Virus genome (UHGV): UHGV-0191955
DNA: 28,411 nt
Strand: one strand, 5' to 3'
From: a virus
Both the position numbers and the translations under genes were made by a program. The notes below the pieces were generated by a model. The model saw only the letters and a program-made list of their open reading frames with translations, was not told the DNA's origin and searched no databases. Shown here in pieces: positions 1 to 27,757 of this stretch. How positions within the stretch are numbered: position 1 is the stretch's first letter; each line of letters begins with the position of its first letter.

Positions 1-864
1 ATGAATTATATGCTTGAAATAAAGCTCTTCTACGATTGGCTCGAAACGCATGAACTTTCCGCCATGGGGATTTCTCTGTGGCACGCGCTGATGCAGGTGG
101 CATCGCGAAGCGGATGGCGCGAGGAGTTGCAAATCTCGCTTTCGACGCTTATCGGTCGTACTTCGTTATCGAGAACGACGATCTATAAAGAACGCGAGAA
201 TCTAAAAAGATACGGGCTGATCGATTATCGCGGTTTAGGCGGACGTTGTGCCGGAATTTACGTGATAAAGAGTTTCGAGTCCCGTGTCGTGTCCGTCTCG
301 CGAACGCAAACCGGGACACGAATGAAAGAGTTCGAAGAACTTATGTATTCGGATGCGTCCGTCATGCGGACACAAGCCGGGACACAAATAGGGAACATAT
401 ATAGACTGAACTATACGAATGCTGGAAAAGAAATACAAGAAACTGAAGTCGCAGGCACGTCTGTTCCGGTATCTATGAACACCTTTTTCGCAAAAAGAAA
501 AAAAGTTGCGCACAAAAAAGAAAAATCTATTTCCCCTCTTTTCGATGCAGAGAAGTGGTTGGAACGGATAGATGAGGCATGGCGCAGCGTGATGCGGATA
601 TGGTTGGAATATAAGCGCAGTCGTCGCGAGCGCTACAAAAGTGAGATGTCGGCTCGCAAGTGCTTGACGCAACTTCAGCATCTCTCGAATAGCGACATAC
701 AGACCGCACGGCAGATCATCGACCGCAGTATCGCCAACAACTGGGCAGGACTGTTCCCGTTGCAACCGGCACAGCCTGCGCGAGGACAGCATCCCGGACA
801 GATCATCCATCCTGCGACCGACGAACGTACCCGGCGATTGTTGGAAAAACTTGACCGCAGATGA
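1..864 (+). CDS. putative phage replication initiation / replisome-organizer protein
   Basis: 287-aa ORF with ATG at position 1 (could be 5'-truncated by the window edge). Its stop overlaps the next start (ATGA at 861-864). It sits directly upstream of a DnaC-like loader, the usual replication-module pairing. No catalytic motif recognised. Confidence 0.5.
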   Translation: MNYMLEIKLFYDWLETHELSAMGISLWHALMQVASRSGWREELQISLSTLIGRTSLSRTTIYKERENLKRYGLIDYRGLGGRCAGIYVIKSFESRVVSVSRTQTGTRMKEFEELMYSDASVMRTQAGTQIGNIYRLNYTNAGKEIQETEVAGTSVPVSMNTFFAKRKKVAHKKEKSISPLFDAEKWLERIDEAWRSVMRIWLEYKRSRRERYKSEMSARKCLTQLQHLSNSDIQTARQIIDRSIANNWAGLFPLQPAQPARGQHPGQIIHPATDERTRRLLEKLDRR

Positions 865-1571
865 AATATGGGACAATGACCTCTTTGCGCAAATACCGAC
901 GAACCTATTTTCACACGACAAAAACGACACCCCGTATGAACCGCATCGCATCGCTTATCGACCGCATGGTCGCAGACAAACGCCTCGTCGTCCGTTCGCC
1001 GCATGACCTCTCGTGGGGCGACAAGGACTATTGCGAGGGGCTGTTCTGCGAAATCTTCCGGCGGGTCGATACTTCGATCGTGCGCTACCGCCACCTGCCC
1101 GAGTATGCCGGGATCATCGACTGGATGACCTCGACCGAAGGGCGCGGACTGCTGCTCTACGGCGATTGCGGACGCGGCAAGAGCATCATTCTTACGGGCG
1201 TCGTTCCCGTGCTGCTGGCGATGAAGGAGCGGATGACGGTCGCCATTCACGCCGACGAACTCTCCAAGCCTTACGACTTCGCCCTGCGGACAGCCGGATA
1301 CGATGTGCATACGACCAACCTCGACTACCTGACCCGCACGGCCTATCCAATTATCGACGAGTTGGGCGTCGAGTCGCTCGTGAACGACTACGGCGAGAAG
1401 TACGAGGGCTTCAATCGCGTCATCAACGCTGCCGAACGCTATCTGCGGCCGTTGTTCATCTCGACGAACCTCACCCGAGAACAACTGCTTCGCCGTTACG
1501 GAGAGCGGACTTTCGACCGATTGACGCGCTTGTGCCGTCCGGTGAAGTTCGAGGGCGAGAGCTTGCGCTGA
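861..1571 (+). CDS. DnaC/IstB-like AAA+ helicase loader ATPase
   Basis: Walker A 'GDCGRGKS' and Walker B 'IIDELGVE' read directly from the translation. Translationally coupled to the upstream gene. Confidence 0.75.
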   Translation: MKYGTMTSLRKYRRTYFHTTKTTPRMNRIASLIDRMVADKRLVVRSPHDLSWGDKDYCEGLFCEIFRRVDTSIVRYRHLPEYAGIIDWMTSTEGRGLLLYGDCGRGKSIILTGVVPVLLAMKERMTVAIHADELSKPYDFALRTAGYDVHTTNLDYLTRTAYPIIDELGVESLVNDYGEKYEGFNRVINAAERYLRPLFISTNLTREQLLRRYGERTFDRLTRLCRPVKFEGESLR

Positions 1572-10405: not shown

Positions 10406-10409
10406 TATT

Positions 10410-11030: not shown

Positions 11031-12172
11031 AATGTTAATGCAATCTGCGTTCGGGAAGGAATAGAAATAATACGCTTTCTATTCCCTACTTTTATTTCAG
11101 CAGTGACCGGAATAGTGTCCGCATATTCAGCAGTAATCATGTGATTGTTCCCTCTTATTGCAGATAAATAGACGAACCGCATATCTGTTTCTTGTGAAGT
11201 CATGACCGGCATCTGGAGATGCTCGTTGAAATGTTTGATCTCTTTATTTTGCGTTCGTTGCGAAACGAATTCTTTATGTGCTGCTATTCGATTAGCAATA
11301 ACTTCGTTCATTTGGTCAACCGATGATGAATGAATATTATCGGCTATAATATCTATAAACTTATCATCAATTTCATAACCAATACTATTGCGATTGCTCA
11401 TGATAGATGCAATCGTAGTTGTACCGGTTCCTAAAAAAGGATCCATTACCGTATCTCCTTGCAACGAATACATATTGATTAGACGGTATGGAACTTCCAA
11501 TGGATAGGCTGCACTCCTGTCTCGACTTTCTGCTGATATTTTTTGTTTGGTACCTTTTATATTGTCCCACAAATCGGAAAACCACACATTGCGTTCCTCC
11601 CAAAAGAACGAACTCTCACGGCGTTTCTGTTTGTCTATTGCAGATTTGAATTCGCGTTTACCTCCTTTGCGAAAAATCAAAATCCATTCGTGTTCCAATG
11701 TTACATATGCTCCTGCAGGAAGCATTCCGGACCCCATAAATTTATTTGGAGCATTCGTTTGCTTCCTCCAAATAATGTTTGGAAGATTTACATACCCGTG
11801 AGCGGTGAAATAGTTAATTATACGGGAATGATTGGAGTATAAAGCAAAATTGCCATTGAATGTTCGCGTCGCATCACCGACATTGATACAGACGATTCCA
11901 CCCGGGACAAGGACACGTGTCACCTCATCCCATACTTTATCCAGCTCTTGATGCATTAATTCAAAAGCCGCATCCGGCTGGTTTTCATCAAGGGCATTTG
12001 CAATACAAGGATTTTGTTTGCTTAATATCTCATCCCACATTTGAATCATGGGATATGGCGGAGATGTAACGACTAACTCGACCGAGTTGTCATTAATTTC
12101 TTTCATCTGTTGGGCAGCCCCAGTATATATGCTATGCGTTGTCTTCATAATTTCAAAGCAAAGATAATTCAT
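11027..12172 (-). CDS. DNA methyltransferase, beta-class N4-cytosine/N6-adenine type
   Basis: Motif IV 'VVTSPPYP' near the N-terminus and AdoMet-binding motif I 'VMDPFLGTGTT' near the C-terminus, the circular permutation typical of beta-class amino-methyltransferases. AT-rich. Alternative ATG at 12148. Confidence 0.88.
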   Translation of the reverse strand: MNYLCFEIMKTTHSIYTGAAQQMKEINDNSVELVVTSPPYPMIQMWDEILSKQNPCIANALDENQPDAAFELMHQELDKVWDEVTRVLVPGGIVCINVGDATRTFNGNFALYSNHSRIINYFTAHGYVNLPNIIWRKQTNAPNKFMGSGMLPAGAYVTLEHEWILIFRKGGKREFKSAIDKQKRRESSFFWEERNVWFSDLWDNIKGTKQKISAESRDRSAAYPLEVPYRLINMYSLQGDTVMDPFLGTGTTTIASIMSNRNSIGYEIDDKFIDIIADNIHSSSVDQMNEVIANRIAAHKEFVSQRTQNKEIKHFNEHLQMPVMTSQETDMRFVYLSAIRGNNHMITAEYADTIPVTAEIKVGNRKRIISIPSRTQIALTF

Positions 12173-12284
12173 TTCCTCCTATAATCCTCCATTATTCAAC
12201 TTTATTCTAAAATTGCGACAAAGTTTCCTTTTAGAGGCTGTTCGGTGGATTAAGTTTGCTCCCGAAGAATCAATAACGAGATTT

Positions 12285-13484
12285 ATGAGCAAACTGAAAA
12301 CCCTTAAAGAGAGCCGTGCTGCCGTGTTCGCAAAGATCGACGAGTTGCGTACCGCGACCGACGGTCGCGAGATGACCTCCGAGGAGCAGGAGAGGTGGAA
12401 CACGCTGCTTGCGGAGTACGAGCAGGCCGACCGAGCTGTCGAAGCCGAGGAGCGCTACGTCGATATCGAGCGCCGGCAAGCCGAGCAGCAGTATGTTCGA
12501 CAGACTTCCGGCGAGCAGCCCGACGAACGTCGTGCCGAGGAGTACCGCACCGCTTTCCGCGACTACCTGCTGCGCGGCGCAGCGGATATTTCGCCCGAGC
12601 ACCGGACACTCTTCGAGCAGCGCGCCGGCATCACGGGTTTGTCGGGCGGCGTGATCGTCCCTTCGTCGCTGGCCGACAGCATCGAGGTTGCGCTGAAAGC
12701 CTACGGCGGGATGTTCGAGGCGGGTTCCATTCTCACCACGAGTAAGGGCGGCGACCTGATTATGCCGACGGTAAACGATACCGATGCGAGGGCTACGGTC
12801 GTTGCCGAATACCAGCAGTCGACCAAGTCCGCACCGTCGTTCGGCTCCGAAACGCTCAAAGCCTATACCTACCGCACGCCCATCGTTCCCGTGTCGTTGG
12901 AGCTGTTGCAGGACTCGGCATTCGACCTCGAATCGCTGCTCTCGGGTCTGCTGGCCGAGTCGTTCGGACGGGGCATCAACTACGACCTTACGCGCGGCGA
13001 CGGCAAGGGCAAACCCAAGGGCATCGTCGAGTGGGCGCACGCCTGTGCTACTAACCCCTCTGCTGCAGGCATCTCGCTCGATGCTCTGATCGAGCTCGTC
13101 AAGGGCGTGGATTCCTCCTATGCCCGACACGGGCGGTTCATGTTCAACCGCAATACGCTCTACTCGCTCGTCAAGATCAAGGATACGACGGGACGCTACA
13201 TCTGGCAGGAGGGTGCGAAGGACGGCACGCCGCCGACCTTGTTCGGCAAGGCGTATATCCTGAACGACGACCTCGACGATGCCGCAGCGGGCAAGACTTC
13301 GGTGTTGTTCGGCGACTTCTCGAAGTTCAAGATCCGTATGGTCCGATCGTTCCGCGTGATCCGCCTGAACGAGCTGCTCGCCGAGTACCTTTCGATCGGG
13401 CTGTTCGGCTTCGCCCGCACGGACGGCATCCTGTTGGACGCCGGTACGCACCCCGTCCATAAGTTGGTGCATAAATCGGTGTAA
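12285..13484 (+). CDS. major capsid protein (HK97 fold) with N-terminal coiled-coil delta domain
   Basis: ATG at 12285 preferred over the TTG at 12213. N-terminal charged coiled-coil 'EEQERWNTLLAEYEQADRAVEAEERY', then a capsid-like body. Position after the protease. Confidence 0.8.
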   Translation: MSKLKTLKESRAAVFAKIDELRTATDGREMTSEEQERWNTLLAEYEQADRAVEAEERYVDIERRQAEQQYVRQTSGEQPDERRAEEYRTAFRDYLLRGAADISPEHRTLFEQRAGITGLSGGVIVPSSLADSIEVALKAYGGMFEAGSILTTSKGGDLIMPTVNDTDARATVVAEYQQSTKSAPSFGSETLKAYTYRTPIVPVSLELLQDSAFDLESLLSGLLAESFGRGINYDLTRGDGKGKPKGIVEWAHACATNPSAAGISLDALIELVKGVDSSYARHGRFMFNRNTLYSLVKIKDTTGRYIWQEGAKDGTPPTLFGKAYILNDDLDDAAAGKTSVLFGDFSKFKIRMVRSFRVIRLNELLAEYLSIGLFGFARTDGILLDAGTHPVHKLVHKSV

Positions 13485-15209: not shown

Positions 15210-15650
15210 ATGCCTGAAACTTACGGAAACAAACAGGTCGTCCAAGGCGAGGACATCATCCTCTTGGTGGACGATAAGACGACGCTCCACGCCACGACGC
15301 ACACGCTGAAGGTGGACTTGGAGATGAAGGAGCTGCGCACGAAGGATACCGACGGCAAGGAGAAGTGGCCGGGCGATGTCTCGTGGTCGGTGGACGGCGA
15401 CGGGCTGGTGGTCATCGACGATTCGATCGAGAACAGCCATACCGCCGAGGAGGTTCTCGACCTGGTACTTAGGAAAAAACTCGTCGATGTGGTCGTCAAG
15501 TCGCCGCTCACGGGACTCGCGAAGATGTACACGGGCAAAGCCTACATCACGACCTTTTCGCTCTCGACGCCTGCGGGCGACAACGCCTCTTACAGTTATT
15601 CGCTTACCGGCAGCGGCAACCTGACGCCGGCAGACAAACCTGAATCCTGA
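15210..15650 (+). CDS. putative major tail (tube) protein
   Basis: 146 aa, acidic, beta-rich-looking. Position immediately upstream of the chaperone frameshift pair. Confidence 0.5.
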   Translation: MPETYGNKQVVQGEDIILLVDDKTTLHATTHTLKVDLEMKELRTKDTDGKEKWPGDVSWSVDGDGLVVIDDSIENSHTAEEVLDLVLRKKLVDVVVKSPLTGLAKMYTGKAYITTFSLSTPAGDNASYSYSLTGSGNLTPADKPES

Positions 15651-16842: not shown

Positions 16843-17625
16843 ATGGCAAGATTGAAAACTCCGATTTCATACTATGGCGGCAAGCAGATGCTTTTGAAGC
16901 ATATCCTGCCGCTGATTCCCGAACATACGCTCTACACGGAAGCCTTCTGCGGCGGCTGCGCCGTGCTGTTCGCCAAGCCGCCCGCGCAGTGCGAAGTCAT
17001 CAACGACACGAACACCGAATTGGTGAACTTCTACCGCGTGGCGCAGACCCAGTATGCGGCACTCAAGGCGATGATCGACGCGACGCTCCACAGCCGCGAG
17101 ATACACGCGCACGCACGGCATATCAACGAGCATCCGTCGTTCTTCACGCCCGTCGAGCGGGCTTGGGCTGTATGGGTCTGCACGAAGTTGGGCTTCGCCT
17201 CGATGATCGACGGAACGTTCGGCTACGACCGCAGCGGTACGACGACGCTGAAACTCCGCAATGCGAAAGAGGCCTTCACCGAGGAGTTGTGCGGACGCCT
17301 CGGCCGCGTTACGGTCGAGTGCGAGGACGGCATCGATGTCATCCGCCGCTACGACTGTCCCGAGGCGTTCCACTTCGTCGATCCGCCCTATGTCGGCAGC
17401 GACTGCGGACACTACAACGGTACGTTCGACGAGGAGGATTTTTCGAGGCTGCTCGACACGCTTGCAACGGTCGAAGGGAAGTTCATGCTCACGATGTTTC
17501 CGCACGAGAAGATCGAACGCCTCGCCGCCCGGCACGGCTGGACGATCCATCGGCTCGACCGCACCATCACCGCCTCGAAAGTTTCCCGCCGCCGGCAGGA
17601 GGAGTGGATTACGACGAACTACTGA
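16843..17625 (+). CDS. Dam-like N6-adenine DNA methyltransferase (D12 class)
   Basis: 'ISYYGGK' N-terminal motif, 'EAFCGGCAV' AdoMet motif and catalytic 'DPPY' in 'FVDPPYVGS'. No adjacent nuclease. Confidence 0.85.
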   Translation: MARLKTPISYYGGKQMLLKHILPLIPEHTLYTEAFCGGCAVLFAKPPAQCEVINDTNTELVNFYRVAQTQYAALKAMIDATLHSREIHAHARHINEHPSFFTPVERAWAVWVCTKLGFASMIDGTFGYDRSGTTTLKLRNAKEAFTEELCGRLGRVTVECEDGIDVIRRYDCPEAFHFVDPPYVGSDCGHYNGTFDEEDFSRLLDTLATVEGKFMLTMFPHEKIERLAARHGWTIHRLDRTITASKVSRRRQEEWITTNY

Positions 17626-17632
17626 TACCGAC

Positions 17633-18408
17633 GTGGGTACATTCGCTTACGATAACCCCGCTTACATCGCTTCGTGCTCGTTCGGCAAGGATTCGATCGC
17701 TACGATCCTCCTTGCCCTCGAATATGGCGAGCCGCTCGATGCCGCTGTCTTTTCGGAGGTGATGTTCGACCATCGGCGCAATATCAGCGGCGAGATGCCC
17801 GAACACATCGAGTGGATCTATTCGACGGCGATTCCGCGTCTTGCCGCCTTGGGCGTACGGGTCGATGTCGTCCGTTCGGAGAAAGACTATCTTACGTTAT
17901 TCCATACGGTCATAGGGAGCAGTACGCATAAGGGTATGCTGCGCGGCTGGCTCATCGGCGGCAAGTGCTGCGCCAATCGCGACCTCAAAATCCGGCCTAT
18001 ACATCGCTATTATGCCCGTTATCGAGAGCAAGGCATCGTGCAGTACGTCGGCATCGCGGCCGACGAACCGAGACGCCTCGCGCGGATGCAGGAAAAGGGT
18101 ATAACCGTAAAACGAGTCTGCTCGCCAAGTACGGGTACACCGAGGCGGACGCCCGACGCAAGTGCGAAGAATACGGTCTGCTGTCGCCTCTCTACCGCAC
18201 CTCGCATCGGGGCGGTTGCTGGTTCTGCCCCAACTGTCGCATTCCGGTCTTCGCCGAACTGCGCCGCCGCCATCCTGAATTGTGGCGTGAACTGCAACTG
18301 CTCTCGAAGGTCGGAAATAAGTCCTCCGAAGGTTTCAAATACGGGCTGACTTTCGAGGAGGTCGAGCGGCGGATGGATCTCTTCGAACACTCACCGACGC
18401 CATTCTAA
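17633..18408 (+). pseudogene. PAPS-reductase-like (PP-loop) protein, frameshifted
   Basis: N-terminal part in one frame carries PP-loop-like 'CSFGKDS' and 'GIAADEPRRLARM'. C-terminal part in the -1 frame carries 'HRGGCWFCPNC'. The frame switch falls near 18092-18115 in an A4/G3 run. Start assigned to the GTG at 17633. Confidence 0.55.
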
Positions 18409-18410
18409 AC

Positions 18411-18509
18411 AACTGAAAATAAATACGATAATAGTCGCCGAATAACTTGCGTGTTCCGAATAACGATGTTATGTTTGTCATGCAATAAACAACTAAAATA
18501 GAGCGAATT
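18411..18509 (+). promoter_or_regulatory. repeated promoter element, copy A
   Basis: ~100-bp element shared by five loci. TTG at 18447-18449 and TATGTTTG at 18470-18477 with 20-nt spacing. Ends at the ATG of the downstream ORF. Confidence 0.65.
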
Positions 18510-18813
18510 ATGAAAAAGACAGTCATCGTGAAAGGCGAGCGTCGCAAGGTAGAATTCGAGTATCGAGTAATCGATAAATTGGTTAGTTGCCAAAAAGCAA
18601 ACGATGGGATAAGCAGGGGGATGGCTTCCGGTCGAAACCTATTACCACGAAGCCGTTGCCATTATCGACGGTGTAGAATATCCGAGCGTTCGACGCTGGC
18701 ATACCAATGGCGGCAGGTATTCGGAACAGTTCTTTTACAACGGACATTTCTATGATTCGTATAAGAAAATGATCGAGCGCATTCTCGAATCGGCAGACGA
18801 AAGTAACTCTTGA
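18510..18813 (+). CDS. small cassette protein A, apparently frameshifted
   Basis: ORF 18510..18755 reads 'MKKTVIVKGERRKVEFEYRVIDKLV...'. After a G5 run (18616-18620) the +1 frame gives a protein-like 'WLPVETYYHEAVAIIDGVEYPS...ERILESADESNS' to a stop at 18811-18813, while the original frame turns Arg-rich and low-complexity. Confidence 0.45.
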
Positions 18814-18833
18814 ACCTCGATGGAAGCAGATGG

Positions 18834-18863
18834 AAAAACAGGCTCCGTACGGAGCCTGTTTCG
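18834..18863 (+). terminator. perfect palindrome terminator hairpin
   Basis: AAAAACAGGCTCCGT/ACGGAGCCTGTTT: an A-tract, a perfect GC-rich palindrome, then a T-tract, a bidirectional intrinsic-terminator shape, directly after cassette A. Confidence 0.6.
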
Positions 18864-18886
18864 ATCTTTCGCTGTAAGCGTAAATA

Positions 18887-18997
18887 ACTGAAAATAAATA
18901 TGATAATAGTTACCGGATAACTTGTGTGTTCCGAATAACGATGTTATGTTTGCAGTACGATAAACAACTGAATAATAGACGATTAAAACACCCGAAC
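18887..18997 (+). promoter_or_regulatory. repeated promoter element, copy B
   Basis: Same element as copy A with substitutions; contains CTTG...TATGTTTG; followed by ATG at 18998. Confidence 0.65.
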
Positions 18998-19420
18998 ATG
19001 ACAAGTGCACAGGCAAAACAGATCGCATCGAACTATATGCGGCAGCAGAGCGATTATGTATTTTCGGCGGTAACGGTTAAAAGCCTCGCTCCGGCGAACG
19101 GACCAGTCAAGGTGTGGCTCACCACCGAAGACGACTACGGGGACGAACTGATCGTCGAGGTCGAGATGGACCCGCAGTCGAATGAGATCCGCTGGAAGAA
19201 GATCTGCAACACGGGACGCCTATCCGAATATCTGAAGCCGGCTACTCGGATCGATAAACTTTCGGCGGGGCAGCGCTTCCGGCTGCAAGGCGACTGCGTG
19301 GTTTACGAGTTCGTGGACAATGTAAAGGACCGCAGCAATATTCCCTATATCATCCGACGGGCGGACCGATCCGGTTGCGTATCGAGAGTCGGATGGCAGG
19401 AAGTTTTTCCTATCGAGTAA
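18998..19420 (+). CDS. small cassette protein B (140 aa)
   Basis: ATG immediately after promoter copy B. No motif recognised. Confidence 0.55.
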   Translation: MTSAQAKQIASNYMRQQSDYVFSAVTVKSLAPANGPVKVWLTTEDDYGDELIVEVEMDPQSNEIRWKKICNTGRLSEYLKPATRIDKLSAGQRFRLQGDCVVYEFVDNVKDRSNIPYIIRRADRSGCVSRVGWQEVFPIE

Positions 19421-19429
19421 CCGATAACC

Positions 19430-19456
19430 GCGCACCTTGCCGAAAGGCAGGTGCGC
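19430..19456 (+). terminator. stem-loop with GAAA tetraloop
   Basis: GCGCACCTTGCC-GAAA-GGCAGGTGCGC, one bulged T, located after cassette B. Confidence 0.4.
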
Positions 19457-19472
19457 ATAAAACGATACGACG

Positions 19473-19703
19473 ATGAAACTCCGCCGAACGAAAACCGGAA
19501 CTTACACGATTGCTGGTATTACCGCAACTCAATATCGCACCCTTGCGGCAGTGCTTATGACCGCCGATGAGCGTTGCTTCGACGAACAGGACGAGGACGG
19601 CAACTATTACAGCAACGACGATTTCGTCTGCTCGCTCGATGGCGATGAACGGGTGGCTTTGCGACAGGTGTGCGACGCACTTCGGCAACGTGTAAAATAT
19701 TGA
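19473..19703 (+). CDS. small acidic protein (76 aa)
   Basis: ATG ORF between cassettes B and C. Not preceded by the repeated promoter element. Confidence 0.45.
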   Translation: MKLRRTKTGTYTIAGITATQYRTLAAVLMTADERCFDEQDEDGNYYSNDDFVCSLDGDERVALRQVCDALRQRVKY

Positions 19704-19796
19704 AAATAAATGCGATAATAATTAATGGAAAACTTGCGTGTCCCGAATTATGATGCCATCTTTGCAGTGCAATAAACAACTAATATAGAGTGTATT
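19698..19796 (+). promoter_or_regulatory. repeated promoter element, copy C
   Basis: TATTGAAAATAAATGCGATAATA...CTTGCGTG...TTTGCAGTGCAATAAACAACTAATAT. The -7 box is degenerate here (TCTTTG). Confidence 0.55.
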
Positions 19797-20126
19797 ATGA
19801 GTACAAGAGCAAGAATCGGAGTAAGACTTCCAGACGGAAAAATCAAAAGCGTCCATATATGGCGGGACGGACATCCCGATACGTTGGGCGAAACGTTGTC
19901 AGCGCACTACAATACATTGGAATCGGCAATGGCACTGGTCGAACGAGGCAATATAATCGATGTGGAAGCGCGTCTCGAAGAGTGCCGGTTCGAGAAATCG
20001 AATGAACGGTACGATACCGAGCCTCGGGTTTATAAAACGGTTGCCGCCTACGAACGAGAAATCGGAGGAGGATATATGTTACAAATATCTCTATCGGGAC
20101 GGCAAGTGGGAATACCGGGCGGTTGA
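19797..20126 (+). CDS. small cassette protein C (109 aa)
   Basis: ATG immediately after promoter copy C. No motif recognised. Confidence 0.55.
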   Translation: MSTRARIGVRLPDGKIKSVHIWRDGHPDTLGETLSAHYNTLESAMALVERGNIIDVEARLEECRFEKSNERYDTEPRVYKTVAAYEREIGGGYMLQISLSGRQVGIPGG

Positions 20127-20202
20127 TTGGTAACCGACTTCCGATCGTAAGGAACGAATGCTCCGAGCCTCCGACGGGAGGCTTCCCCTCGTTTCGTCCA
20201 TT

Positions 20203-20247
20203 CAGTTGTTTATTGCGACCGGAGCCGTGCATCGTGTACGGCTCCGG
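20203..20247 (+). terminator. CAGTTGTTTATTGC box plus 10-bp GC hairpin (CCGGAGCCGT/ACGGCTCCGG), copy 1
   Basis: Perfect stem followed by TTT. The 14-mer is the reverse complement of GCAATAAACAACTG found in the cassette leaders. Confidence 0.5.
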
Positions 20248-20321
20248 TTTCCGTTCAAAGGCGGGACATTGTTTCTGCAACGGATCTTCGGCAGCATGTA
20301 TATTTACCATATGGAATAGGC

Positions 20322-20440
20322 TTGATAAATAGTTGGTATTCTTTGAATTAAGTTACCGATAAACTTGCGTGTCCCGAATAATGATGTTATGTTTGCAGTG
20401 CAATAAACGATTGAACTGCAATCTATTAAACGACTCGATT
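20322..20440 (+). promoter_or_regulatory. repeated promoter element, copy D
   Basis: 5' half diverged; retains CTTGCGTGTCCCGAATAATGATGTTATGTTTGCAGTGCAATAAACGATTG; followed by ATG at 20441. Confidence 0.6.
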
Positions 20441-20659
20441 ATGAATACTGCGAATCGAAAAAGAACGGAAATCGACGCCGAACTCGACCGGTTGGAGGTC
20501 GAATTCGAGAAGAACCGCAAGGAGATGCAACGCCTTGCCGACGAGAACAGACGTGCCGGCAACCGCTATGGCGAATTATCGAATGCGAATCACGACATCA
20601 ACAACCGGATCCTCACATTGCTCGCAGAGCGTTGGGAATCGGAAGAGACGACCGATTGA
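20441..20659 (+). CDS. small coiled-coil cassette protein D (72 aa)
   Basis: ATG after promoter copy D. Charged, heptad-like sequence 'IDAELDRLEVEFEKNRKEMQRLADENRR'. Confidence 0.5.
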   Translation: MNTANRKRTEIDAELDRLEVEFEKNRKEMQRLADENRRAGNRYGELSNANHDINNRILTLLAERWESEETTD

Positions 20660-20675
20660 CGAAACGAGAGACGGA

Positions 20676-20703
20676 CCCCGCCGAGAAATATTCCTCGGCG
20701 GGG
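20676..20703 (+). terminator. 10-bp perfect stem hairpin (CCCCGCCGAG/CTCGGCGGGG)
   Basis: Read directly; lies after cassette D. Confidence 0.45.
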
Positions 20704-20734
20704 TAAAACCCGAAACCGGAAAACACATAAAGAG

Positions 20735-20926
20735 ATGAAAACGATGAATGCAAAGGTAGGCGACAAGATTCGCATTATCCATCTTCGCGACGAGGACAGC
20801 CGTTACGACGGCAAGGAGGGAACGATCGAGTTCATCGACTCGCTCGGACAACTGCACGGCACATGGGGCGGGTTGGCAGTCATTCCCGAAGTCGATCGGT
20901 TCGTAATTATCGAGAAAGCGGAATAA
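20735..20926 (+). CDS. small protein (63 aa)
   Basis: ATG ORF without the repeated promoter element. Alternative ATG at 20744. Confidence 0.45.
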   Translation: MKTMNAKVGDKIRIIHLRDEDSRYDGKEGTIEFIDSLGQLHGTWGGLAVIPEVDRFVIIEKAE

Positions 20927-20977
20927 TCGCCTGCAACGATAATGCTCGGTTCCGCCATCTTTTTATAGCATCTAATC

Positions 20978-21076
20978 TATTGAAAATAAATACGATAATA
21001 GTCGCCGAACAACTTGCATGTTCCGAATAACGATGTTATGTTTGCAGTACGATAAACAACTAAAAAAGAGCGAATT
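20978..21076 (+). promoter_or_regulatory. repeated promoter element, copy E
   Basis: Closest copy to A. Contains CTTGCATG...TATGTTTG; followed by ATG at 21077. Confidence 0.65.
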
Positions 21077-21364
21077 ATGAGAACGAACATCGAACGGTTT
21101 TTAGAGAGATTCCCGAAGAATGCCACGAATTGGGCGCAGGCGACGGACGAGGTGCGCGATATGGCTCACAAGGCTCGCGAATTGTTGGAAGAGTACGAAG
21201 GCGTAATCGTCGAACCGGTAAATTTCCGGACTATCGAGACCCCGGCCGAGTGGAATACCGAAGGTCGCGAGTTCATCCTGACGAATTTCGATCGCATGGC
21301 GGATAGGACCAAAGAGCGTTTCTACGACTACTTCCGCGAGTGGTTCGAAGGCGAAGAGGAATAG
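21077..21364 (+). CDS. small acidic cassette protein E (95 aa)
   Basis: ATG immediately after promoter copy E. No motif recognised. Confidence 0.55.
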   Translation: MRTNIERFLERFPKNATNWAQATDEVRDMAHKARELLEEYEGVIVEPVNFRTIETPAEWNTEGREFILTNFDRMADRTKERFYDYFREWFEGEEE

Positions 21365-21372
21365 ACCGACGC

Positions 21373-21409
21373 ACGGATGCTCCCCGTTCAAGCTGCGGGG
21401 AGCATCCGT
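21373..21409 (+). terminator. 14-bp perfect stem hairpin (ACGGATGCTCCCCG/CGGGGAGCATCCGT)
   Basis: Read directly; 9-nt loop; directly after cassette E. Confidence 0.5.
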
Positions 21410-21471
21410 CCTAACCCCGGAGTAGGGTTGCACACGTCGTCTCTTTCGATAGGAAATCTATCGTGCTCCAT

Positions 21472-21515
21472 CAGTTGTTTATTGCAGCCGGAGCCGCATC
21501 ATGTGCGGCTCCGGC
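21472..21515 (+). terminator. CAGTTGTTTATTGC box plus 12-bp GC hairpin (GCCGGAGCCGCA/TGCGGCTCCGGC), copy 2
   Basis: Second copy of the element at 20203-20247, with the same 14-mer and a related stem. Confidence 0.5.
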
Positions 21516-21589
21516 AATCTCATTATAGAGGGACTTTGTTTCAGCGATGAGGCCTTTTGCCATTTTACCTTTATTCCCGCGACAAAGGT

Positions 21590-24454
21590 ATGGCGATTTT
21601 TGGTCTGAAATATTACGCAGACCTTCGCTCGAAGTACAAGGGCGTCTTGTGGCGCGTAGAGATTTCGGAGCGGGGGTACGCAGGTCCGTCGGAGGAGATG
21701 ACCTTCGACGGCGGTGCACCGTTGCAGATCACGTGGGAGAAACGGGGCGACGAGTTCTACGTGCCGGTCAAGGCTTCGGAGGCGACCATCAACATCCTCT
21801 GCAAGGAGAATTTCCATTACCTGGCTCTGTTCACTTCCGATCCCCGTTATTTTCGCGTCTCGATTTTCCGCAATCGGCAGCTCTATTGGCGGGGCTACGT
21901 CACCTCCGACCTCTACTCCGAGAACTTCACGGCTCCGCCTTATACCGTCACGATCAAGGCCGTGGACGGCTTCAATCTCTTGTCGAGCATTCCGTTCCGC
22001 GACCTCTTACATATCGGCATCGCGGGCAGACGATCGCTGTGGGAACTGCTCTCCTCCTGCATCGACCTGTTGGAGTTGGACCTCGATACGGCGGACTGGA
22101 TGGATCTGTATGCCGAAGGGATGGACGAGAACGCCTCTCCGCTTCGTCAAACCTATATCGACCTCGAACGGCTCTACTACGTCTACGAGCAGCCTACCTA
22201 TCGCGACATCCTCGAACTGTGCCTGCGTCCGTTCGCCGGGCAAATCTTCCAGTCGAACGGAGCCCTGCATATCCGCCGCGCCGTGTCGCTCTACCGAACT
22301 GCCCGTCCCGTGAATTTCTACCGCGTCGGCACGGAGTATCCCGTCGGACGGATCGTTACGGGCAGCGGGCTGCGGCTCGTGATCCATACCGGTGCGCAGG
22401 TCGTCGCGTCGGCGGCACGCGAGCGCATCGACGGTATGTGGACGGGCGACCTGCACATCGAGGGAAGTTCGACGCTCGACATCGTCCCTGCGCTGCGCAA
22501 GGTCTCGGTCGATGTAAAGAACAAGAGCCTCGACAACCTGATCGCCCGCATCGGGTTCTACGATCCCGACGCTTGGATGGATCCGCACGGCTTCGTCTCC
22601 GTGAAGAGCGGGGAGGAACTCTATTTCAGCGGCGAGGATGCCTATCGGAGTGAGGAGGTCGTAACTCGGGGGTTTCCCGTCGAGCAGTGCAACTTCCCGC
22701 TCGTATGGGAGTTCGGGTTGCAGACCTACCATCGGGAGTGGGGACTGGGCATTTACCGCCCGAACGAAAGCGTCGATGTCGCGGTGCATTACGGCGTCCG
22801 CATCGTCGGCGAAAAGGCGACATACAGCCTCACCGAGAGCGGCTCGTGGGTGCAGTCTTCCGACGGGGAGATCGCGAGTACGGTCAAGACCGGCAACGAG
22901 CAGAATATGAAGATCGAGATCGACGGCATCCCCTGCGACGGCGAGTGGCGGTTCTTCATCCGGCAGACGCTCATCGGCAAGATCACGACCTATACCGACC
23001 GTTTCGGCAATCCGAGCGGCCGCACCTCGGGCTATCAGGAGAGCGCCGCGTTCCGCAAGATGACGCTCTCGATCGATGCGGGCGACAGCTACGACAAGGG
23101 ATTGCGCTACGAATCGCTCGTCGATCCCGCGAACAATGTCGATATGTCCGTAACGCTTCCCGTGAGCGATATTCCCGCCATTCCGAACGACCGGCTGCTC
23201 TATGCGCTCTACTACCTCGATGTCGCCGGCAATCCCACGCGCATCTGGCATACGAAAGGTCGGAACGACTACGACACGCTGGTCGGTCATATCGTGCAGG
23301 GAGCATTGCGGTACAAGCAGCTGCCGAGCCGGCGCATCACGGGCGAGATCTTCACGGGGCAGCATATCGATATGAATACGGTGGTTCGGGACGACAAGTT
23401 CCTGAACGCCGCCTATTACCTGAACTCCATCGAACTGAATGCCCTCGACGACTCCTACAACAGCGAACTCACGGAGATGCCGCATCTGCTCGCGACGGAG
23501 AGACCGCCGGAGGGCGACGACTGCATAGCGGTCGCAACGCTGTCCTTCACGGTCGGCAAGGCGATCCGCTGCCTGAACCGGCTGCTGCTCCAGTCCGCCG
23601 ATAAAAAGACGGTCTATGCCTTCGACACCGCTACGCGGCAGGTGCGGGAGATCTACCGCAGCACGACGTCCTTCGAGATGTACGAAGCGGACGAGGGATT
23701 CGTCGCGGTGGATGGGAAAGAGGTCCGCTACCTCGACTATCGCGGTACGGTCGAACGGATATATACCCCGCCGGAGGAGTACCGCAACGTCGCGACCTAC
23801 ATGGACGGGTATATCCATATCCTGAAATCTTACCGGCAGTATATCGGTCCGCGGGGCGGCAATGCCGGCGGACGCAGCGCCCGCACGGCAGAGGACGAGG
23901 ATCCGAACTACCGCACCTATCGTTACCTCTCGCGCCCGGAGTGCAAGTACGTTTCGCCCGACGCCTCGACCGGCTATCGCGGACGGGGATATGCCTACGA
24001 GGGTACGCCGATGTCGGGTGCGATCCTCGCCCTGCGGCGCACGGAAAATACGATCGTCGTGAACACCTCGCATGGCGCCTATCTGCACGACAAACGGTTC
24101 CACCAGCCCTGCAAGATGCTGCAATTCGCTGCGGGCGAGCAGATCGTCACCGTCTCCGACAACTATATCGGCATCAACGCCGACGATATGCTGTGGTTCT
24201 ACCGGCGGGATTCGATTACCGAGCGGACGCTGCTCCGGCGGTTGGGACGCTGGGCGGATCATGCCGACCATACGATGAGCGAGGTCGTGCACTCCTACGA
24301 CGACGGCATCTTCATCCGGAACTTCCGCGACGACACGACGACCGACGTTCGGAACGTCGCCGGCTGGGGCGAGACCATCATGGGATTATTCTTCATCTAC
24401 GGCGACCTCTATATCGTGCGCGAACGGGCGATTTACAAATTCATTCCTGAATAA
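21590..24454 (+). CDS. large hypothetical protein (~954 aa), possibly virion-associated
   Basis: Long GC-rich ORF with phage-like codon usage. ATG at 21590 preferred over the TTG at 21557. No motif recognised. The long minus-strand ORF opposite it is treated as antisense noise. Confidence 0.55.
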   Translation: MAIFGLKYYADLRSKYKGVLWRVEISERGYAGPSEEMTFDGGAPLQITWEKRGDEFYVPVKASEATINILCKENFHYLALFTSDPRYFRVSIFRNRQLYWRGYVTSDLYSENFTAPPYTVTIKAVDGFNLLSSIPFRDLLHIGIAGRRSLWELLSSCIDLLELDLDTADWMDLYAEGMDENASPLRQTYIDLERLYYVYEQPTYRDILELCLRPFAGQIFQSNGALHIRRAVSLYRTARPVNFYRVGTEYPVGRIVTGSGLRLVIHTGAQVVASAARERIDGMWTGDLHIEGSSTLDIVPALRKVSVDVKNKSLDNLIARIGFYDPDAWMDPHGFVSVKSGEELYFSGEDAYRSEEVVTRGFPVEQCNFPLVWEFGLQTYHREWGLGIYRPNESVDVAVHYGVRIVGEKATYSLTESGSWVQSSDGEIASTVKTGNEQNMKIEIDGIPCDGEWRFFIRQTLIGKITTYTDRFGNPSGRTSGYQESAAFRKMTLSIDAGDSYDKGLRYESLVDPANNVDMSVTLPVSDIPAIPNDRLLYALYYLDVAGNPTRIWHTKGRNDYDTLVGHIVQGALRYKQLPSRRITGEIFTGQHIDMNTVVRDDKFLNAAYYLNSIELNALDDSYNSELTEMPHLLATERPPEGDDCIAVATLSFTVGKAIRCLNRLLLQSADKKTVYAFDTATRQVREIYRSTTSFEMYEADEGFVAVDGKEVRYLDYRGTVERIYTPPEEYRNVATYMDGYIHILKSYRQYIGPRGGNAGGRSARTAEDEDPNYRTYRYLSRPECKYVSPDASTGYRGRGYAYEGTPMSGAILALRRTENTIVVNTSHGAYLHDKRFHQPCKMLQFAAGEQIVTVSDNYIGINADDMLWFYRRDSITERTLLRRLGRWADHADHTMSEVVHSYDDGIFIRNFRDDTTTDVRNVAGWGETIMGLFFIYGDLYIVRERAIYKFIPE

Positions 24455-24970: not shown

Positions 24971-25393
24971 ATGAACGAGAAAACTTTGCCGAGAGGGATG
25001 CGCAATCGCAACCCGGGCAATATCCGCCGATCGGCGACGAAGTATCTGGGCGAAGTTGCGCCCTCGCGCGATGCCGCATTCAAGCAGTTCGAGACGATGG
25101 CGTGGGGCTACCGCGCGATGTTCGTGCTGCTGGACTCCTACTCCCGTAAAGGTTATCGGACAATCCGGCAAATGATCTCGCGCTACGCTCCGCCCATCGA
25201 GAACCATACCGAGAACTATATTCGTTGCGTGTCCGAATGGTCGGGCATCTGCGCCGACGAACCATTGGATACGCAGGCGGGCGAAACGATGATCCCTATC
25301 GTGGCGGCTATGTCGCGCATGGAAAACGGCTGTCCGACGGTACTATCGGACGTCGAGGCAGGCTGGACGCTTTATCTGCAACACAAACCCTAA
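24971..25393 (+). CDS. hypothetical protein (140 aa)
   Basis: ATG ORF directly upstream of the tape measure gene. Contains 'NRNPGNIRRS'. Function not recognised. Confidence 0.45.
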   Translation: MNEKTLPRGMRNRNPGNIRRSATKYLGEVAPSRDAAFKQFETMAWGYRAMFVLLDSYSRKGYRTIRQMISRYAPPIENHTENYIRCVSEWSGICADEPLDTQAGETMIPIVAAMSRMENGCPTVLSDVEAGWTLYLQHKP

Positions 25394-25399
25394 ACAGCC

Positions 25400-27757
25400 A
25401 TGTCCCGGAGAATCGCCGATTTACTTATAAAGATCGGAGCCGACTCGTATGAGTTCCAGCAGAAGGCGCAGCAGGTCGAGAAAGGGCTCGGCTCGCTCGA
25501 AAAGAAGCTGACCTCCGTCGGCAAGTCGCTCTCGTTGAAACTCTCCGCGCCCCTTGCGGCATTGGGCGGCGTGTCGCTGCACCTGGCCGATGTGCAGGCC
25601 AAAGCCGAAGCGAAGGTGCAGCAGGCGCTCAAGGTTACGAATCAGGCCGTCGGTTACAACTTCCGGCAGTTGGCCGACTACGCTTCGGAGTTGCAGGGCA
25701 AGACGATTTTCGGCGACGAGACGATCCTCGACAAATCCACCGCCCGCCTGTTGGCTTTTACCAATATCACGGGCGAAAACTTCAAGCGCACGCAGGCGTT
25801 GGCATTGGACCTCGCCACGGCGTTGGAGATGGATTTAGGTTCGGCGTCGTTGCAATTGGGCAAGGCGCTCTCCGATCCCACGACGAAGCTCTCGTCGCTG
25901 TCGCGTGCCGGCATCACCTTCTCCAAGGAGCAGACGGAAGTAATCAAGAAACTCGCCGAGACGGGCGACATAGCCAAGGCACAGGCGATGATCCTCGACG
26001 AATTGGAGCGCAAGTTCGGCGGGCAGGCCGAAGCCGCCGCACGGACGGGACTCGGAGCCGTGCAGCAACTCAAGAATGCGTGGGGCGACTTCCTCGAACG
26101 GATCGGTGCGGCCATCATGCCTTTCGCGACGAAGATAGCAGGTGCGCTCTCGACAGTCGTACAGATGCTGCAATCGATGTCGCCGGCGATGATGCAGACG
26201 ATCGTCGTTGTAGCGGGGCTGGTCGCAGCGGTCGGTCCCCTTTCGCTCGGAATCGGTGCCGTGATCAAGGTGCTGCCGATGCTGGCGGCGGGATTTACGG
26301 CATTGCTGTCGCCCGTCGGGTTGATTATGGCGGCGGTCCTCGCGCTCGGTGCGGCGTTCGCCTATGCCCGCATCCAAAAGCAGAAGATGATCGACGAGAT
26401 GGCCGAGGTCGAATCGCTCGACGAGCTCGAACGCAAGTTGCAGGAGAATATCGCCGAGCAGAAAGAGATCATCGCCACGACGACCAAGACACGGATGGTT
26501 CCGAATTTCGGGGGATTAGTCGCCGGTTTTACTTTGCAGAAAGTACCCGACGAATCGAAACTCGCACCCCTGCGTAAGGAGTACGACCTGCTGACGGCTG
26601 CTATCGAGAAGAAACGCGAAACGGAGAAGAAGGCGGCCGAGGCGCAGGCCGAACTGGACAAGGTAATGGACGAAGCACGCAAGCAGACCGAGGAGTTGAT
26701 GAAGTCCATCGCCGGAACCAACGCGCAGACGGAACAAAGCACGGGCATCATCGGTAAATTGCAGGCGCGGATCGAGGCTCTCGAAAAGAAGAAACTGCTG
26801 CCCGAATCGACCGTCGAGGATATCGCCGCGGCGAACGCCGAGATCGAGAAGCTGCAAAAAGAGCTGGAGCGGATCAGGAATATCAAGCCCGAAGACCTGG
26901 AACCCGTCGTCAAGATGGACGGTATTTTGCCCGAAGGCTTCGAGTTAGAGTTGCCGGCGCCGAAACTCAAAATGGGCGATCTGAAACCCGTAGCATTGCA
27001 ATATGCGCAGCAGATGCAGACGATATTCGGCGCGGTGCGCGAAGGGTTGTACGGCTGGGCGGACGACAACAGCGCATACTTGCAGGAGCACGTCGCCGAT
27101 ACGGTCTCGATGGTTGAGAATTACACGACGGCACTGACGGCGAAGGGCTGGTCGTTCTCGGCAGCATTGGAGCATGTCCACGCCACGATTGCGGAGGTGA
27201 TGACGCGCTTCGATCAGCAGGTGTCGAAGTTTATGGCCGACAGCATCGTCGCAGCGGCGGAGGCTATCGGGCAGATCATTGCCGGCGATTTGGGATTCGG
27301 AGGGCTGATGAAAGCGATCCTGACGCAGTTCGCCTCTTTTCTGAAAAATATCGGCTCGCAACTCATCGAGTTCGGCGTGATGATCATCGCCTTCAAGTCT
27401 GCACTGAAATCCGTCCTCGCCAATCCGTGGGCGGCGATCGCCATCGGAGCAGCGATGGTCGCAGCGGCAACCGTGATGACGGCGCTCATCAACAAGAATG
27501 CGGAGAAGAGTGTGCCGGCATTGGCCAACGGCGGTCTGGCATACGGTCCCACCTATGCGATGGTCGGAGACAACCCCAATGCCGGCACGGATCCCGAAGT
27601 CATCGCACCGCTGTCGAAGTTGCAGGCGATGCTCCCGACGGGTGGCAGCCCGCAGAATCTACGAATAACCCTCGGCGGTCAATTGACTGCCAAGGGTCGG
27701 GACTTGGTGTATGTTCTCGGAAAAGAGAACTTCAAGTCACAGGTGTTGGGTGGATGA
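25400..27757 (+). CDS. tail tape measure protein
   Basis: 785 aa. Ala/Leu/Gln-rich coiled-coil N-terminus, conserved tape-measure core 'LGKALSDPTTKLSSLSRAGITFSKEQTEVIKKLAETGDIAKAQAMILDELERKFGG', central hydrophobic segments, and a Gly/Ala-rich C-terminus. Confidence 0.85.
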   Translation: MSRRIADLLIKIGADSYEFQQKAQQVEKGLGSLEKKLTSVGKSLSLKLSAPLAALGGVSLHLADVQAKAEAKVQQALKVTNQAVGYNFRQLADYASELQGKTIFGDETILDKSTARLLAFTNITGENFKRTQALALDLATALEMDLGSASLQLGKALSDPTTKLSSLSRAGITFSKEQTEVIKKLAETGDIAKAQAMILDELERKFGGQAEAAARTGLGAVQQLKNAWGDFLERIGAAIMPFATKIAGALSTVVQMLQSMSPAMMQTIVVVAGLVAAVGPLSLGIGAVIKVLPMLAAGFTALLSPVGLIMAAVLALGAAFAYARIQKQKMIDEMAEVESLDELERKLQENIAEQKEIIATTTKTRMVPNFGGLVAGFTLQKVPDESKLAPLRKEYDLLTAAIEKKRETEKKAAEAQAELDKVMDEARKQTEELMKSIAGTNAQTEQSTGIIGKLQARIEALEKKKLLPESTVEDIAAANAEIEKLQKELERIRNIKPEDLEPVVKMDGILPEGFELELPAPKLKMGDLKPVALQYAQQMQTIFGAVREGLYGWADDNSAYLQEHVADTVSMVENYTTALTAKGWSFSAALEHVHATIAEVMTRFDQQVSKFMADSIVAAAEAIGQIIAGDLGFGGLMKAILTQFASFLKNIGSQLIEFGVMIIAFKSALKSVLANPWAAIAIGAAMVAAATVMTALINKNAEKSVPALANGGLAYGPTYAMVGDNPNAGTDPEVIAPLSKLQAMLPTGGSPQNLRITLGGQLTAKGRDLVYVLGKENFKSQVLGG

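Follow-up and report, generated by a model that had tools for sequence, protein, structure and literature searches.

We tentatively favour the reading that a 14-mer and GC-rich hairpin, found twice in a prophage of Alistipes, make up the module that bounds an array of accessory ("moron") cassettes at its 3' end. With the same reserve we take the element to be a terminator that carries an anti-leader acting at the RNA level. The stretch analysed, called the window here, is 28,411 nucleotides long and is part of an integrated prophage of about 33 kb in total. The prophage begins about 1.2 kb to the left of window position 1 and ends past the integrase, about 5 kb to the right of the window. When 25 kb were compared with GenBank phages by megablast, no match came back. 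The cassettes are small accessory genes that sit between tail genes and are gained and lost among close relatives, and the array turns over by recombination between promoter repeats. The window holds five, each with its own Bacteroidota-type promoter and a conserved leader. Searches of Pfam and PHROGs gave the cassette proteins no function beyond DUF4314 and families of unknown function. Phage morons are promoter-gene-terminator units inserted in the late operons of lambdoid and HK97-type phages, and the cassettes resemble them in being small accessory genes that lie between tail genes, have a promoter of their own and precede a hairpin. They differ in that up to 7 units stand in tandem and share one promoter-leader family, and in that the array end has the putative anti-leader.

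All five cassette promoters are of the Bacteroidota sigma-A type, with a -33 TTG, 20 nt and a -7 TAnnTTTG, and match the TAnnTTTG/-33 consensus described for sigma-ABfr. In all five a conserved A-rich leader, consensus GCAATAAACAACTG, lies at a fixed 4 nt past the -7 box. The motif, RYRATAAA(C/G)NNYTR, keeps this distance even in the diverged promoters of distant relatives. Presumably the cassette mRNA begins right at the leader, the start being placed from the -7 box. This implies 5' UTRs of 28 or 41 nt; the usual length is 23-32 nt (PMC7366714). The cassettes are laid out as follows.

18447-18449 and 18470-18477, plus strand: -33 TTG and -7 box TATGTTTG of promoter A
18482-18495, plus strand: leader of promoter A, GCAATAAACAACTA, 4 nt past the -7 box
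18510-18755, plus strand: gene A
18957-18970, plus strand: leader of promoter B, ACGATAAACAACTG (-7 box 18945-18952)
18998-19420 and 19473-19703, plus strand: genes B and B2
19769-19782, plus strand: leader of promoter C, GCAATAAACAACTA (-7 box CATCTTTG, 19757-19764)
19797-20126, plus strand: gene C
20400-20413, plus strand: leader of promoter D, GCAATAAACGATTG (-7 box 20388-20395)
20441-20659 and 20735-20926, plus strand: genes D and D2 (the D2 protein is a DUF4314 protein)
21049-21062, plus strand: leader of promoter E, ACGATAAACAACTA (-7 box 21037-21044)
21077-21364, plus strand: gene E

The element follows cassettes C and E, in copies that we call H1 and H2. These are its parts, with the neighbouring hairpins.

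20165-20184, plus strand: first hairpin after gene C, GAGCCUCC-GACG-GGAGGCUU, from a fold of 20140-20258
20203-20216, plus strand: H1 candidate anti-leader 14-mer, CAGTTGTTTATTGC, unpaired in local folds
20219-20247, plus strand: H1 hairpin, CCGGAGCCGTGCA-TCG-TGTACGGCTCCGG, then TTTCCGTT
20263-20306, plus strand: H1 promoter-like module, GGGACATTGT box, 26 nt, TATATTTA, directly upstream of cassette promoter D
21373-21409, plus strand: hairpin directly 3' of gene E, 14-bp stem
21472-21485, plus strand: H2 candidate anti-leader 14-mer, CAGTTGTTTATTGC
21488-21514, plus strand: H2 hairpin, CCGGAGCCGCA-TCATG-TGCGGCTCCGG
21530-21573, plus strand: H2 promoter-like module of a tail or virion gene (954 aa), GGGACTTTGT box, 26 nt, TACCTTTA

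The two exact plus-strand copies of the 14-mer are where the sequence-only reading had put them. That reading also called the 14-mer the exact reverse complement of the leader, which is true only as a near-match: exact GCAATAAACAACTG occurs in none of the five promoters, and the reverse complement of the 14-mer agrees with the leaders of A and C at 13/14 positions, of B and D at 12/14 and of E at 11/14. When up to 2 mismatches are allowed, the window contains 6 matches to the 14-mer where 0.11 would be expected, and four of the six fall, on the opposite strand, in the leaders of promoters A-D. Both hairpins are GC-rich as claimed, but that of H1 is not perfect as DNA because it has one G.T inside. 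Folded as RNA, the H1 core stem has 13 bp including one G.U, a TCG loop and -28.1 kcal/mol (z = -5.9), and the H2 core stem is 11 bp perfect, 13 bp as folded, with -28.8 kcal/mol (z = -5.7). An end at 21515, given earlier for the second copy, runs one base beyond the H2 core stem.

The repeat is longer than had been described. H1 and H2 align without gaps over about 105 nt, the loop excepted, and this length also holds a conserved block, GGGACnTTGTTTCnGC, followed 26 nt on by a TAnnTTTA box. What the copies have in common is a set of discrete blocks only (CCAT plus the 14-mer, the outer stems, the GGGAC box and TAnnTTTA), separated by spacers of equal length that cannot be aligned. The spacing from 14-mer to hairpin to GGGAC box is constant in H1, H2 and a diverged copy, H3. 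We take the sharing of discrete blocks by H1 and H2 as a pattern of selection and not of recent copying.

It is important to realize that the repeat consists of two separable parts, the 14-mer and hairpin on the cassette side and a GGGAC/TAnnTTTA module on the tail-gene side. The second part, overlooked in the earlier reading, is conserved and promoter-like and belongs to the tail or virion gene (954 aa) that starts at 21590. The motif of GGGAC box, 26 nt and TAnnTTTA is conserved at the tail gene in distant relatives, there without the 14-mer, and elsewhere in this prophage it was found nowhere beyond H1 and H2. H1 arose by duplication of the whole junction between cassette and tail-gene promoter. 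The idea that 14-mer and hairpin move as a unit held up: they occur together in three different downstream contexts, in all of which the hairpin is at the 3' end of the cassette array, and L003 has lost H1 and cassette C jointly.

In a second, common prophage architecture 14-mer and hairpin are intact and the tail-gene promoter module, without a 14-mer site, lies about 12 kb away. The H2 3' edge is a synteny breakpoint between the architectures. In the second, H2 and a different integrase, apparently linked to a tRNA, flank the tail block 954..233 in inverted orientation. The cargo differs at both junctions, and next to the 954-aa gene are the integrase and what by eye reads as a tRNA-like sequence. 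This inversion is an evolutionary rearrangement and not a flip-flop. Exact-sequence look-ups with window proteins recovered the window-type architecture only. H2 was at first read as an attP or as the border of an invertible segment because in several contigs the similarity breaks off at 21514-21520 and because three IMG/VR contigs begin at one base. We reject this. H2 is internal in both architectures. The shared first base is the one right after the ORF6N stop, and we take these starts as trimming at a gene boundary. The alcohol dehydrogenase adjoining H2 is prophage cargo, with prophage context in 24/24 contigs read.

The case for a terminator begins with the stem-loops themselves, which are stable and GC-rich (z about -5.8) and lie 77-124 nt past the stop codons of C and E. 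They resemble an intrinsic (Rho-independent) terminator in their GC-rich stems of 11-13 bp, in lying downstream of a gene on the coding strand and in having a U-rich tail in the second architecture (where UAUUUUAUUUU follows the H2 hairpin). However, in the window H2 is followed by CAAUCUCA, without a U tract, and H1 only by UUUCCGUU, and the tract before the stem is U-rich, not A-rich. A terminator consensus scan called neither H1 nor H2. In favour of action on the plus strand, the stem of H3 is kept only through two G.U pairs on that strand; across stem variants the strand signal is inconsistent, and some are wobble-compatible on the minus strand only. The wobble patterns gave no verdict on the strand of action: those of the leaders are as neutral transitions would produce them, and those of the stems are mixed. 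The hairpin at 20165-20184 is possibly an earlier terminator upstream of H1. Both it and the one at 21373-21409 are predicted between stop codons and 14-mers, and transcripts might end there first. We suggest that the hairpin of the element works as plus-strand RNA, where it would terminate and stabilise the cassette transcripts and insulate the tail operon.

On this reading the transcripts of cassettes C and E would be closed by the 14-mer and then, after the same gap of 2 nt in H1 and H2, by the hairpin. The U/G-rich 14-mer just 5' of the hairpin would be an anti-leader, its partner being the 5'-terminal 12-14 nt of the cassette mRNAs. In cis this would give a 5'-3' panhandle stacked on the terminator hairpin; in trans the pairing could come from the 3' UTR or from a 3'-UTR-derived fragment. 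Either way, pairing would be expected to alter 5'-end-dependent decay, ribosome loading, or both, of cassette messages.

The earlier suggestion that a cassette transcript running through the element could pair its 5' and 3' segments was borne out in silico by folds of the C, E and D transcripts, with pairing probabilities of about 1.0 for C-H1, E-H2 and D-H2. With G.U allowed, 13 of the 14 positions pair for A, B and C, 14 for D and 12 for E, and the 14-mers alone form duplexes of -13.7 to -16.3 kcal/mol. When the whole 28.4-kb window was scanned, H1 and H2 were the two best same-strand partners for all five leaders, at -13.7 to -20.6 kcal/mol against -9.9 to -15.7 for the next best and a mean of -3.3 to -6.1. 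The inverted match exceeded 300/300 shuffles for promoters A, B and C with both H copies and for D with H1. That of D with H2 was reached by 1/300 shuffles, and that of E is weak, reached by 8/300 and 17/300. An antisense regulatory motif, as proposed earlier, is possible, and covariation adds no support for it: among natural variants, in a lineage sample with few substitutions, none was found between leader and 14-mer. The 14-mer variants T5C (H1 of L069; H3 of L004 and L089) and T12C (H2' of L089) each create an A.C mismatch with their own cassette's leader. Most variants of the leader are compatible with wobble pairing, which is no support for pairing because it is expected for transitions in an A/C-rich sequence.

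In icaR of Staphylococcus aureus the Shine-Dalgarno region is the pairing partner of the 3' UTR, and cleavage by RNase III has been shown (PMC3868564). The element is similar in that a short 3' UTR segment is complementary to the 5' UTR of its own mRNA, with a predicted panhandle that would affect translation and decay. The icaR-type criterion is complementarity of at least 10 nt between 5' and 3' UTR that is predicted to form, and here there are 12-14 pairs. The predicted target differs, being the first bases of the message, 14-27 nt before the AUG, and one predicted anti-leader fits five paralogous leaders. A second case of 5'-3' UTR pairing within one mRNA is reportedly B. subtilis hbs. The host phylum largely lacks SD-led initiation and is not known to have Hfq or ProQ. 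CpxQ and SroC are 3'-UTR-derived small RNAs of enterobacteria. In B. thetaiotaomicron, 3'-UTR-derived small RNAs that share a terminator are known as a class (PMC7366714). The element is like such RNAs in having a single-stranded seed directly 5' of its own terminator hairpin and several possible targets in trans, but those targets would be sibling phage cassettes and not host mRNAs.

A stronger version, which we regard as quite unlikely, is a built-in antisense regulon, in which the 3' ends of two cassette mRNAs supply a terminator-anchored, wobble-tolerant anti-leader for the 5'-terminal 12-14 nt of all five paralogous cassette mRNAs in cis and in trans. If true, it would set the level of a whole lysogenic-conversion gene family. 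If the pairing alone is real, one 3'-UTR motif is matched to a duplicated promoter-leader family, and the expression of several prophage accessory genes is coupled in Alistipes, a common human gut bacterium. A defined 14-nt pair would be useful because post-transcriptional control in the Bacteroidota is poorly known. If the pairing is not real, the element is an ordinary terminator-promoter junction, duplicated. For the annotation of this widespread prophage group, the promoter motif of the tail gene and the family of cassette promoters are practical marks.

The element itself was found in 4 of 185,579 species genomes, all Alistipes, and on about 15 metagenome contigs, with 1-2 copies per genome and always inside the prophage; no copies were found outside this prophage lineage. 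Relatives at 55-74% protein identity carry 4-7 cassettes with the same leader family and no same-strand anti-leader. This confinement to one lineage fits a rival that we consider rather unlikely, that the 14-mer has no function and is an inverted copy of a nearby leader, carried along with the hairpin in the duplication of the junction. It could have originated through a switch of strand or template, or through illegitimate recombination, beside the palindrome. Small inversions are indeed frequent in the region: relatives carry exact reverse complements of the loops of H1, of H2 and of the hairpin at 21373-21409 (CATCATGTG versus CACATGATG is one case), and the loop of the last is found in either orientation. 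The lack of covariation fits as well, as does a population variability of the 14-mer that is not clearly below that of its flanks. The age of the copies argues the other way. H1, H2 and H3 are old, their spacers and loops being unalignable, yet the 14-mer is kept at 14/14 between H1 and H2 and at 12/14 in H3. Its position directly 5' of the terminator hairpin is also the most accessible place for an antisense seed.

The constant spacings also fit action at the level of DNA, a proposition we find doubtful. Here a DNA-binding protein of phage or host would recognise the GCAATAAACAACTG motif, which spans +1 to +14 at the five cassette promoters, like an operator, and which in H faces the other way, upstream of the tail-gene promoter. 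A single protein would then be able to shut the cassettes and act on a late-type promoter. The fixed distance of the leader from the -7 box, distant relatives included, and the constant arrangement of 14-mer, hairpin and GGGAC box in H1, H2 and H3 agree with this, and the left end of the prophage carries an HTH-type gene. Substitutions in the H 14-mer (positions 5, 12 and 14) mirror leader polymorphisms (positions 10, 3 and 1), but by our own count this is not significant (p about 0.06-0.13). Against this reading, the site is single, non-palindromic and about 95-108 nt upstream of the putative start. The second architecture, moreover, keeps 14-mer and hairpin while its tail-gene promoter, 12 kb off, has no site, and the tail-gene promoter motif of distant relatives likewise lacks the 14-mer.

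A mobile element (miniature inverted-repeat or REP-like) or a decayed minus-strand cassette promoter is very improbable. The earlier reading had offered a small non-autonomous inverted-repeat element and a divergent promoter remnant, and the element does contain a palindrome with a conserved flank and a 14-mer that is leader-like on the minus strand. Against the first, 1-2 copies per genome, never dispersed and confined to this prophage, are not what such an element would leave, and Rfam 15 covariance models gave no match up to E = 1 in region 18300-21700. Against the second, similarity ends at 14-16 nt, and the minus strand has neither a -7 nor a -33 box, the hairpin being where the -7 box would be. 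We had also considered the reverse-complemented H as a whole inverted promoter and rejected it on the same 14-16 nt in local alignment. That idea arose from a shared GATG centre and TGTCCCG.

Bacteroidales use many invertible DNA switches, and leader and inverted 14-mer form 13/14 inverted repeats either side of genes C and E, which could bound a segment that the second tyrosine recombinase of the prophage, Xer-like and encoded at 2327-3262, flips to give on/off phase variation. We find this hardly credible: a search of IMG/VR found no inverted junction (promoter and leader joined to the reverse-complemented H flank), no H copy examined has the inverted gene orientation, and the canonical upstream flank is present in 22/22 H copies on prophage-derived metagenome contigs, as well as in those examined from IMG/VR, GTDB genomes and ENA loci.

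The 14-mer and its GC-rich hairpin form a sequence feature that is real and specific. The 14-mer is exact on the + strand at 20203-20216 (copy H1, after cassette C) and 21472-21485 (copy H2, after cassette E), as the sequence-only reading had it, and the hairpin begins 2 nt later in each case (-28.1 kcal/mol in H1 and -28.8 kcal/mol in H2, z about -5.8). That reading also placed an exact reverse complement just after the -7 box of promoters A and C, where it is off by one base (13/14 match), and close variants in B, D and E; these are present, at 12/14 in B and D, but weaker in E at 11/14. As RNA, including G.U, the 14-mer makes 13, 13, 13, 14 and 12 pairs with the leaders of A to E respectively. 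The match exceeds chance: the window holds 6 sites at up to 2 mismatches against 0.11 expected. Against either H copy, the inverted local alignments of A, B and C outscore all 300 shuffles, as does that of D with H1. One of the 300 shuffles reached the observed score for D against H2, and E fails to beat them (8 and 17 of 300). The match is in effect one coincidence event, because the H copies and the promoters are both duplicates.

The leaders belong to an array of five small cassettes, A to E, between tail genes, whose proteins have no assignable function in Pfam or PHROGs. Every cassette starts with a repeat of about 90-115 nt (repeat families D1 and D2) laid out as TTG, 20 nt, TAnnTTTG, the Bacteroidota promoter layout; TTG / TAnnTTTG is the sigma-ABfr consensus (PMC7366714). 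The conserved A-rich leader begins 4 nt after the -7 box. Among loci of related prophages (L numbers), L001, L005 and L006 lack cassette A, and L003 lacks both C and H1. These junctions fall inside promoter repeats, and recombination between the repeats explains cassette gain and loss. The promoter-leader unit forms a family, of which each phage among the relatives carries 4-7 copies (window 18404-21100; L020, L042, L084), and L014 has two cassettes only.

The anatomy of the element is for the most part unremarkable: a terminator-promoter junction that has been duplicated where a moron array ends. The alignment of H1 with H2 spans about 105 nt, in which conserved blocks alternate with spacers of equal length that cannot be aligned.

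Conserved blocks of H1 and H2
Block 1: CCAT(T)-CAGTTGTTTATTGC
Block 2: outer 9 bp of both stem arms
Block 3: GGGACnTTGTTTCnGC, 15 nt further on
Block 4: TAnnTTTA, 26 nt further on (2 matches against 0.01 expected)

Upstream of homologues (46-74% identity) of the 954-aa virion gene, which lies directly downstream of H2, we find a terminator hairpin, 6-15 nt, GGGACAAAGT, about 26 nt, TACCTTTA, about 20 nt and ATG. This order holds in most relatives examined, a few at 46-55% identity being without a clear GGGAC box. Because the last two H blocks also precede these homologues, the GGGACnTTGTTTCnGC...TAnnTTTA part appears to belong to the tail operon, as its promoter or 5' regulatory module, and is not confined to this phage. 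The arrangement GGGACAAAGT(A/C)TCC, about 26 nt, TACCTTTA occurs upstream of homologues down to about 50% identity (window 21530-21592; L020-L042 around 9934-10001). Often TACCTTTA is the inverted repeat partner of AAAGGT just before the start codon, so it could be a 5'-UTR hairpin rather than, or besides, a -7 box.

The 14-mer and hairpin do behave as a unit, both being kept in a second prophage architecture, away from the tail-operon module. Since they are separable from it, H2 in the window joins two modules, one closing the cassette array and one opening the tail operon. H1 is an old duplicate of this junction that now stands in front of cassette D, and a diverged third version, H3, sits at the H1 position in L004 and L089. 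The second architecture is very common. There the 14-mer and hairpin of H2 lead either into a U-rich tract and an alcohol dehydrogenase gene or into a convergent 380-aa gene, 3' end first. Structural genes are 94-97% identical between the two architectures (window 21514-21520 onward; L091 1-22865; L090), and one breakpoint is the 3' edge of the H2 hairpin. The tail block, from the 954-aa gene to a 233-aa DUF285 gene, is inverted between that hairpin and another integrase (49% identity), which adjoins an apparent tRNA gene read by eye; the inverted block retains its own GGAGACAAAGT...TACCTTTA module. The extra cargo is the alcohol dehydrogenase, a 162-aa ExoX-like gene, the 380-aa CoiA/Zn-ribbon gene, ORF6N and AbiJ.

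Three observations make termination of + strand RNA and stabilisation of its 3' end the best reading of the hairpin: the cassette array always ends with it, a good U tract follows it in the second architecture, and in H3 the stem survives only by virtue of two + strand G.U pairs. Local folds leave the 14-mer unpaired directly 5' of the hairpin, the same place where terminator-sharing regulatory RNAs have their seed. Should transcription start 4 nt past the -7 box, the leader would be the extreme 5' end of the mRNA. The proposal that the 5' and 3' segments of a cassette transcript can pair is upheld in silico, with a leader-14-mer probability of about 1 in full-length folds for C to H1, E to H2 and D to H2. 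In the whole window no same-strand site pairs better with any of the five leaders than the two H sites, which lie 6-9 standard deviations off the mean. H1, H2 and H3 are old paralogues yet conserved block by block, which speaks for constraint on the 14-mer. On the folds, the partner ranking and this conservation we tentatively favour an RNA-level anti-leader, which would be a plausible variant of the 5'-3' UTR or 3'-UTR antisense control already known; its nearest precedent is the interaction between the 5' and 3' UTRs of icaR (PMC3868564). Pairing with the leader could give a 5'-3' panhandle that stacks on the terminator, and besides or in place of this the anti-leader may act in trans on sibling cassettes. 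Pairing of either kind would alter 5'-end-dependent decay or ribosome loading.

We go no further than this for several reasons. There is no covariation between 14-mer and leader among natural variants: T5C (L069 H1; H3) and T12C (L089 H2') each give an A.C mismatch with their own cassette's leader, while each variant found in L089 complements, as it happens, the leader of the other cassette. Most leader variants stay compatible through wobble, but transitions in A/C-rich sequence would have that effect in any case. No anti-leader occurs in relatives that share the leader family, variability of the 14-mer within the lineage is not clearly below that of its flanks, and upstream hairpins could end transcripts before it.

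We consider it unlikely, though worth weighing against an anti-leader, that the 14-mer is a functionless inverted copy that arose beside a palindrome. Hairpin loops in this region demonstrably flip, being exact reverse complements between close relatives with stems unchanged (L001, L003, L073 and other loci).

Flipped loops
20228-20238: H1 centre, GTGCATCGTGTAC vs GTACACGATGTAC
21496-21506: H2 loop, CATCATGTG vs CACATGATG
21387-21395: loop of the 21373-21409 hairpin, gttcaagctgc vs gcagcttgaac

This looks like recurrent loop inversion, via recombination between arms or template switching. That the 14-mer is a DNA-binding site in common with the cassette promoters also seems unlikely to us; the motif's fixed promoter-proximal position and the H variants that mirror leader polymorphisms speak for it. 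The small mobile element suggested from sequence fails, as there are 1 or 2 copies per genome, always within this prophage, and no Rfam family matches; so does the divergent promoter, since similarity stops at 14-16 nt and the hairpin sits where the -7 box would be. A gene-inversion switch is rejected on present evidence because the predicted inverted junction is absent from IMG/VR and the H copies examined, among them all 22 from metagenome contigs, keep the canonical flank on their upstream side. An attachment site is rejected because the prophage ends elsewhere in both architectures.

The window is part of an integrated prophage of about 33 kb, since metagenome contigs of up to 252 kb that contain it (exact-protein look-ups) carry a host ATP-synthase operon and neighbouring host genes on the left and tyrosine integrase and glycoside hydrolase genes on the right. 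The element is present in 4 of 185,579 species genomes scanned, all Alistipes. No replication module was recognised in the prophage (window 1-28411 plus L043, L011), and PHROGs and Pfam recognise a tailed-phage gene set.

Tailed-phage genes in the window
4183-5850: large terminase
7902-9119: portal
9106-9747: head protease
12213-13484: major capsid
15210-15650: major tail protein
16843-17625: DNA methyltransferase
21590-24454: 954-aa virion protein
25400-27757: tape-measure-like protein

The left prophage end has an RteC-like ORF and an HTH/excisionase-like ORF (L043 8800-10000; by eye only). A Xer-like tyrosine recombinase (2327-3262; Phage_int_SAM_1 and Phage_integrase domains), between an HNH gene and the small terminase, is a second one besides the Arm-DNA-bind_5 integrase found at the end of the prophage. 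At 24971-25393 a 140-aa protein is encoded whose large Alistipes family (1430 relatives) goes by 'structural protein P5' in the sources. One metagenome variant (L046 16162-17692), presumably a defective copy, is missing the portal and protease region, the terminase leading directly to the methyltransferase and capsid genes. Two low-GC insertions (about 35%) split the head module. The one between terminase and portal (6220-7838) has two ORFs of 194 and 345 aa without assigned function. The one between protease and capsid (9827-12172) has two RE_MjaI-domain ORFs and an opposite-strand N6/N4 methyltransferase, likely a restriction-modification system, and L090 carries another such pair at this site.
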